Below, in pieces: positions 1 to 1,328 of a DNA stretch of 1,956 nt. A model generated the notes under the pieces. That model saw only the letters and a program-made list of their open reading frames with translations, was not told where the DNA came from and did no database searches. The number at the start of each line of letters is the position of its first letter. The stretch's first letter is position 1. Source of the stretch: Escherichia coli (GTDB taxonomy: Bacteria > Pseudomonadota > Gammaproteobacteria > Enterobacterales > Enterobacteriaceae); assembly GCF_003334765.1 (NCBI RefSeq), contig NZ_QOWT01000076.1; one strand, written 5' to 3'. A program made the position numbers and the translations under genes.

Positions 1-533
1 TTCTGGCAACCCATCGCATCAGTTGTGATGATTTTTCCTTTAATATCCAGCATGTTAAGAAGTTCAGGGATAGCTGTGATCTCATTGGATTTCTTATCCG
101 TCTTGATCTGCCCGATGACCAGACTGTGCATTGTTGAGAACGCACTAATGACATGAATCGCTCCCCTGCGGCGACTCTTGTCATAAGAGTGCCGGAGCGT
201 TTTTCCATCAATTGCAATGACGTCTTTATCATTTGATGAATGGCAATCACGCATCCAGTTAATAAAGCACTCGTGAAATTTTGCAGGACTGATACAGGAT
301 ACAACTCTGGCAATAGTATCGTGAACAGGAATACCATTTTCAAAATCACCATATTGCTTCAAGAAATCGAGATGTGTTTCCCCGAAATCCTCTATATCTT
401 CCCAACTTTCTGCACCAGAAATAACGGCAAAAATAGTCAATAGTAGGATGCCTGACAATTTATGCTCTACTTTCCAGGCTTATCTGTAATCGGGAATAAT
501 AGAAATATGTTCCATCAATTTTTTAAGTTCCAT
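1..533 (-). pseudogene. ISAs1-family (H-repeat-associated type) transposase, N-terminal ~177 codons, 3'-partial (runs off the window start); interrupted by an in-frame TAA at codon 18
   Basis: Hand translation of the minus strand from the ATG at 531-533 gives MELKKLMEHISIIPDYR, then TAA (plus 480-482), then in the same frame [159 protein letters not shown], open to position 3. The pattern IxDxR...K.EHxLxxILLL..xAVISGA.xWxxIExFG ... GIPxHDTxxRV is the DDE_Tnp_1-associated N-terminal domain of ISAs1-family transposases. No minus-strand stop occurs in this frame between 479 and 1. Confidence 0.85.
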
Positions 534-538
534 TTGTT

Positions 539-544
539 CACCTT
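539..544 (-). promoter_or_regulatory. Ribosome-binding site for the transposase gene
   Basis: Minus-strand AAGGTG (plus-strand cacctt at 539-544), 5 nt upstream of the ATG at 533. Confidence 0.5.
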
Positions 545-758
545 ATTTATGTAAGGAGTATTTGATCATGTATAAGCTATGAAAAACAGCTTTAGGTAAT
601 AAGGAATATCTCAATTTTTAAACATAAAATGCGAATTATTTAGTACAAAAAAGTAGCGTTACGTGATCTTTCCCTGCAAATGGAACGCAAAATAAACACC
701 TATTCCATGAGTTATATAATTTTTCACAATGATTAATTTGTTTTCTCAGGAAGAGATT

Positions 759-1328
759 TTATTTCTCTTCACTACGAATTAGTTCATGCTGTATCTTTAT
801 TAAACATTCGTAAGACTCATTTTTGTTCGGGAGATGTGCTGTCATTCGAGCATAAGTTGGTTTCTCATCTTTAAAATATTTTACCATGATTGAATTATCA
901 AGGACTGCCAACAACTGAACTGGATCACTGCTCTTTTTTTGATAGATACCCGCTCTTATATAACTTCTAAACCGATCGCCGAGAAACGCCGTTTTTTCTG
1001 CTGTATTTATCAACTCCTGCAACGTTCCTTTGATGGCATGATTTTCATTAAGGCGTAGTGACCCGACGCGAATTAAGAGTCTCGCCCCGCTTGGTGTGAA
1101 TTTATTATTTTTACATGTACCCAGTTCTGTTTGCCAATAATACTCACCGATGTCCTCATTCTGATACCATCTCCACATGGCTTTATTATTTAAGACAGGA
1201 AACGCGGAAAAAATAGTACCCTTAGCGAAAATAGTAAAACAATCATGATCTTTAGCTTGTATTTCGCAATCAGCTATAACACCAAAACTAACAAATATCA
1301 TCAGCAAAAAGAACAAAACTCTTTTCAT
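759..1328 (-). CDS. Putative cognate immunity protein for the Rhs CT toxin; Sec-exported periplasmic protein (189 aa precursor)
   Basis: Track ORF 759..1328 (-). Its ATG (1326-1328) overlaps the toxin TGA (1325-1327) as ATGA. N-terminus [19 protein letters not shown]|DCEIQ has a basic n-region, a hydrophobic h-region and a V-I-A signal peptidase I site. An SD-like AGAGGAA lies 6 nt upstream. The gene is AT-rich (hand-sampled stretches about 28-43% GC). Position immediately 3' of a polymorphic toxin CT is the canonical immunity position. Confidence 0.75.
1272..1328 (-). other. Predicted Sec signal peptide of the immunity protein (19 aa, cleavage after VIA)
   Basis: [19 protein letters not shown] followed by DCEIQ. 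There is no lipobox: the residue before Cys is Asp, not G/A/S, so signal peptidase II processing is unlikely. Confidence 0.65.

Follow-up and report, generated by a model that had tools for sequence, protein, structure and literature searches.

The ybfL transposase gene of the H-rpt element at the Escherichia coli rhsC locus carries a nonsense codon at codon 18

The window, by which we mean the whole 1956-bp stretch of DNA analysed here, is the E. coli rhsC locus: an orphan Rhs tip, then ybfC, then an H-rpt/ISEc1-like element of the ISAs1 family. It is 100% identical over its entire length to the rhsC locus of strain ML35 and of at least 15 other complete genomes, and matches covering 80% or more of it were obtained in more than 3000 genomes. 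Along the ML35 chromosome come, in order, rhsC, ybfB, an orphan fragment of Rhs core plus tip, ybfC, a transposase pseudogene, a truncated ybfD, ybgA and phrB. Within the window, the 3′ end of the orphan Rhs core fragment and its C-terminal tip (ybfO-like) occupy 1325-1956 on the minus strand. This fragment matches NCBIfam RHS_core positions 1205-1261 as well as TIGR03696, contains the DPIGL core-end motif, and stands in the existing annotation as an RHS repeat-associated core domain pseudogene. It is followed by ybfC (759-1328, minus strand), which RefSeq annotates as ‘protein YbfC’ and whose 189-aa product gave no match in NCBIfam. The stop codon of the Rhs tip ORF overlaps the ATG of ybfC in the tetranucleotide ATGA (1328-1325, minus strand). 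Toxin and immunity genes that form a pair are typically coupled by stop/start overlaps of this kind.

The remainder of the window is largely insertion sequence. BLAST of the element against the loci fetched for comparison (given L numbers below) identified positions 1-676, on the minus strand, as the left 676 bp of a 1290-bp H-rpt IS that is ISEc1-like and belongs to the ISAs1 family. The element starts with CAGGGAAAGATC at window position 676 and finishes with ...ATCTTTCCCTG, its right end lying outside the window. The two ends read CAGGGAAAGAT...ATCTTTCCCTG, and the left terminal inverted repeat (19 nt; 659-677, minus strand) is 89% complementary to the right end (L001 5386-5404). Immediately outside CAGGG the flanks differ between loci, and the 1290-bp unit recurs with unrelated flanks. 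On its right side the ybfL element abuts another partial H-rpt, ybfD, which comprises element positions 26-910, and it therefore lacks the clean pair of flanks in which a target-site duplication would show. The original description of H-rpts at RhsC is reportedly that of Zhao and colleagues from 1993. H-rpts are listed as insertion sequences although their transposition has not been observed (PMC3032704).

The transposase gene of this element runs on the minus strand, and the initial annotation was right in placing the beginning of a broken transposase frame at 480-533. As it had also described, a ribosome-binding site precedes the start codon: a Shine-Dalgarno-like AAGGTG, read from the sequence at 539-544, lies 5 nt upstream of an ATG at 533-531. 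The first 17 codons (MELKKLMEHISIIPDYR; 483-533) translate to an N-terminus identical to that of the intact transposase YhhI, and codon 18 is TAA (480-482). Beyond this stop the same frame is open to the window edge (1-479, codons 19-177), and in the full locus it continues to codon 378 with codon 18 as its sole stop. Codon 18 is CAA (Gln) in all other H-rpt copies examined (ybfQ, ybfD and yhhI), which is the sense codon that had been suggested for this comparison. CAA and TAA are separated by a single C-to-T transition, and the base that follows is G (TAAG). This change is the only defect of the window copy of the element. A scan of positions 400-800 for promoters and terminators returned nothing above shuffled expectation.

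A 16-nt inverted repeat, 88% complementary, was observed between 677-692, outside the IS left end, and 521-536, in the region of the start codon. Its pairing could occlude the ATG in a read-in transcript from ybfC. We rejected it as an RBS-sequestering hairpin and regard it as probably a chance occurrence, since its outer arm belongs to locus-specific flanking DNA that other H-rpt loci lack.

Restoring Gln18 gives a product of 378 aa with both domains expected of the family, namely DDE_Tnp_1_assoc (PF13808) at residues 8-94 (E = 9.9e-32) and DDE_Tnp_1 (PF01609) at residues 102-343 (E = 7.1e-31), both from Pfam. The restored product also scores 414.6 bits (cut-off 70) against NF033564, the NCBIfam model for ISAs1 family transposases, but this profile begins only at residue 29 and so could not alone reveal a shared upstream Met or the motif that precedes the stop. 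Position 18 is covered instead by the Pfam domain, within which it falls, and by an alignment with 14 full-length relatives of 97-66% identity, whose named sources are Escherichia, Salmonella, Citrobacter, Serratia, Enterobacter, Dickeya, Raoultella and Entomohabitans. In this alignment the residues I13-P14-D15-Y16-R17-Q18 (IPDYRQ) are invariant, and the equivalent Met is the start in all 14 relatives. The stop therefore lies inside a conserved N-terminal motif, as had been proposed from the window alone. The idea that all intact relatives start downstream of this position is ruled out, since YhhI and the 14 relatives share the upstream Met and IPDYRQ, Gln18 included.

When set beside the ISAs1 family as defined by ISfinder, NF033564 and the pair PF13808 and PF01609, the element agrees in its DDE transposase with both domains, in its length of about 1.3 kb and in its short terminal inverted repeats. 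It departs from the family in one respect: members carry the DDE transposase as a single uninterrupted ORF, whereas the frame in the window is broken by TAA at codon 18 and cannot encode the full-length enzyme. Because YhhI and the 14 relatives are uninterrupted, the window copy is, to judge from its sequence, a defective ISAs1-family member by descent and not an active IS.

A premature stop where intact homologues have a sense codon is the mark of a nonsense pseudogene, provided that the stop is a real allele. The initial annotation had named a single-base sequencing or assembly error as the alternative, under which the gene would be intact. A one-base error in a single read of a single assembly is possible a priori, and we found no other support for it. 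Against it, at least 16 complete genomes, all independent, share the window without a single difference, and all of them carry TAA and not a sense codon at 480-482. We further searched for the 83-mer at window 440-522, which has the stop at its centre. Its exact TAA version occurs in 2621 complete genome records, which come from many laboratories and platforms and include K-12 MG1655, and its CAA version occurs in five. These counts rule out a sequencing error, the probability of which is negligible, and the stop is a real allele.

The same counts qualify the description of the IS copy as fixed beside the Rhs tip. Of the 5426 complete E. coli genomes, about 48% carry the TAA allele, and the CAA form of the haplotype persists in the five records, so that the word ‘fixed’ holds only approximately. 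Three of the CAA cases were examined. In each, the CAA copy is the N-terminal end of a truncated copy of ybfD type, and the arrangement has no ybfL. Such a copy has the ybfL 5′ haplotype without the mutation and is therefore ancestral or else a recombinant.

Comparison of the window with L002, L003, L004 and L005 also showed the H-rpt array at rhsC to be polymorphic, its variants differing in whether they contain a 380-bp ybfQ fragment and in whether they contain ybfL. In the array of the window and ML35, ybfL comes directly after the ybfC flank (window 534-760). The MB50-type array contains ybfQ and a truncated ybfD-like copy, the latter having the ybfL 5′ haplotype with CAA. The K-12-type array has, between ybfC and ybfL, an extra 380-bp H-rpt fragment, ybfQ (L002 3303-3682), whose codon 18 is CAA.

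Apart from this extra fragment, K-12 has the same neighbourhood as the window (rhsC, ybfB, the ybfO-like tip, ybfC, H-rpts, ybgA and phr). Its ybfL (b0705), the middle H-rpt of the RhsC element, is identical to the window element over all 1290 bp, TAA included, and is annotated in MG1655 as a pseudogene. RefSeq/PGAP likewise tags the window CDS as ‘ISAs1 family transposase’, pseudo, with ‘internal stop’. Both records support the earlier description of an inactivated IS copy beside the Rhs tip. The window CDS is the known and already annotated E. coli pseudogene ybfL, an ordinary IS pseudogene with a nonsense mutation. In the open-access literature on ybfL, H-rpt and ISEc1 we found no paper that discusses the ybfL stop codon. 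The biological weight of the observation is small: the feature was correctly spotted, and the pseudogene is already in the annotation. Its practical use is for annotation, where the CDS deserves a pseudo flag and should not be restored on the assumption of a sequencing error.

The closest intact comparison is with the ISEc1/H-rptB element at rhsB, which encodes YhhI (378 aa; WP_000420923.1). The two elements have the same length, the same terminal CAGGGAAAGAT repeats and the same first 17 residues, and they are about 96.2% identical in nucleotide sequence. They differ at codon 18, which is CAA in a complete 378-codon ORF in yhhI and TAA in ybfL.

We consider it highly probable that a C-to-T mutation in the ybfL copy destroyed Gln18, that full-length transposase is no longer made, and that the gene is a plain nonsense pseudogene of an IS. 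In the mechanism that we propose, a single C-to-T transition would have turned the invariant Gln18 codon, CAA, into TAA, and translation from the normal ATG with its Shine-Dalgarno sequence would end after 17 residues, leaving the ybfL copy without a full-length DDE transposase. The mutation presumably arose once, on a particular 5′ haplotype, and is now present in roughly half of sequenced E. coli. Gene conversion or recombination would also have carried the TAA to H-rpt elements of other Rhs loci. The stop would be recent compared with the divergence between ybfL and yhhI, which probably built up while both lineages were active. We infer that the ybfL copy yields no functional protein.

Whether translation could resume downstream of the stop bears directly on this last point. 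In-frame restart codons are present at TTG26 (458-456), TTG32 (440-438), TTG58 and ATG94 (254-252), among them the two that the initial annotation had named, the TTG at codon 32 and the ATG at codon 94. Reinitiation at TTG26, TTG32 or ATG94 might yield a truncated protein that is still functional, for example as a transposition inhibitor or a domesticated factor. This would account for the persistence of an open downstream frame, with 360 codons uninterrupted in most full-length TAA copies, and it would agree with the low dN/dS against intact YhhI (0.04). The product from TTG26 would still span the NF033564 model, which starts at residue 29, and the K-12 record draws the ybfL pseudogene from this very codon (L002 3901). 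However, inspection of TTG26, TTG32, TTG58 and ATG94 found no convincing upstream Shine-Dalgarno sequence at any of them, and a restart at each would drop the invariant IPDYRQ and either cut into PF13808 or remove it altogether. In the K-12 record and in PGAP alike, moreover, the gene has pseudogene status.

The state of the frame downstream of the stop might suggest continuing constraint. In ML35, K-12, NC19 and three yafV-locus copies, the 378-codon frame is interrupted nowhere but at codon 18. The ybfL and intact yhhI sequences are separated by 29 synonymous and only 5 non-synonymous changes (dS 0.135, dN/dS 0.04), but as a test of constraint after the stop this ratio is uninformative, since the divergence predates the stop and the ybfL alleles at rhsC are nearly identical. 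The low dN/dS needs no present-day selection, and the divergence comes most simply from the time when both lineages were active. Few extra lesions are to be expected in any case, because the ybfL alleles at the rhsC locus differ from one another at only 0-4 bases per 1290. Where more change has accumulated, lesions are indeed seen among the TAA copies: two of the nine full-length copies sampled are flagged ‘frameshifted; internal stop’ (L010 and L016; MMC-J-0105 and H5), and three further copies are 3′-truncated at about position 916 (L009, L011 and L012). Constraint on a restarted product does not predict these frameshifts and truncations, and we regard a functional product of reinitiation as very improbable.

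Full-length transposase might alternatively be made at a low level by programmed readthrough or by a suppressor tRNA, as a form of regulation. The mutation left all else intact, and some laboratory E. coli carry ochre suppressors. On the other hand, both release factors recognize TAA, and TAAG is reportedly, from work by Poole and colleagues in 1995, among the stronger termination contexts in E. coli. Our inspection of this stop context found no sign of programmed recoding. Every relative examined encodes its ISAs1-family transposase in one uninterrupted ORF, and the intact copies use CAA. Regulation by readthrough is more improbable still than a restarted product. Nothing points to rescue by either readthrough or reinitiation, and rescue is unlikely. 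The nonsense pseudogene remains our reading of the ybfL copy.

The stop is found beyond rhsC as well. TAA, together with the 5′ haplotype around it (approximately element positions 100-404), is shared by H-rpt copies from two further Rhs loci, which adjoin yafV/ivy/fadE and pptA/yddH respectively. The yafV-side copies lie at L007 1948-3237, L008 448-1737, L015 1501-2788 and L016 1501-2789, and the pptA-side copies at 822-1737 in L009, L011 and L012. Outside the TAA tract, the copies on both the yafV side and the pptA side are yhhI/ISEc1-like. A TAA tract in a yhhI-like backbone indicates that these H-rpt copies are mosaics, and thus that gene conversion or recombination probably spread the nonsense allele among them.

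Spread of the TAA tract by gene conversion to three or more Rhs loci, in copies whose downstream frame mostly remains open, could also mean that selection favours the nonsense allele itself, or an N-terminally truncated product begun anew at codon 26 or 32, as opposed to neutral decay. If so, it might serve, for example, to silence or regulate H-rpt transposase activity beside the Rhs toxin loci. We think it very improbable that selection of this kind is at work. The shared tract is, in practical terms, a convenient marker with which to trace recombination among H-rpt copies at different Rhs loci.

The differences between ybfL and yhhI are themselves unevenly placed. Of 50 differences in all, 13 fall in a 118-bp stretch around the ORF start, at element positions 131-248 (approximately window 546-429). 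This clustering suggests that element positions 131-248 of ybfL may derive from a more divergent H-rpt lineage.
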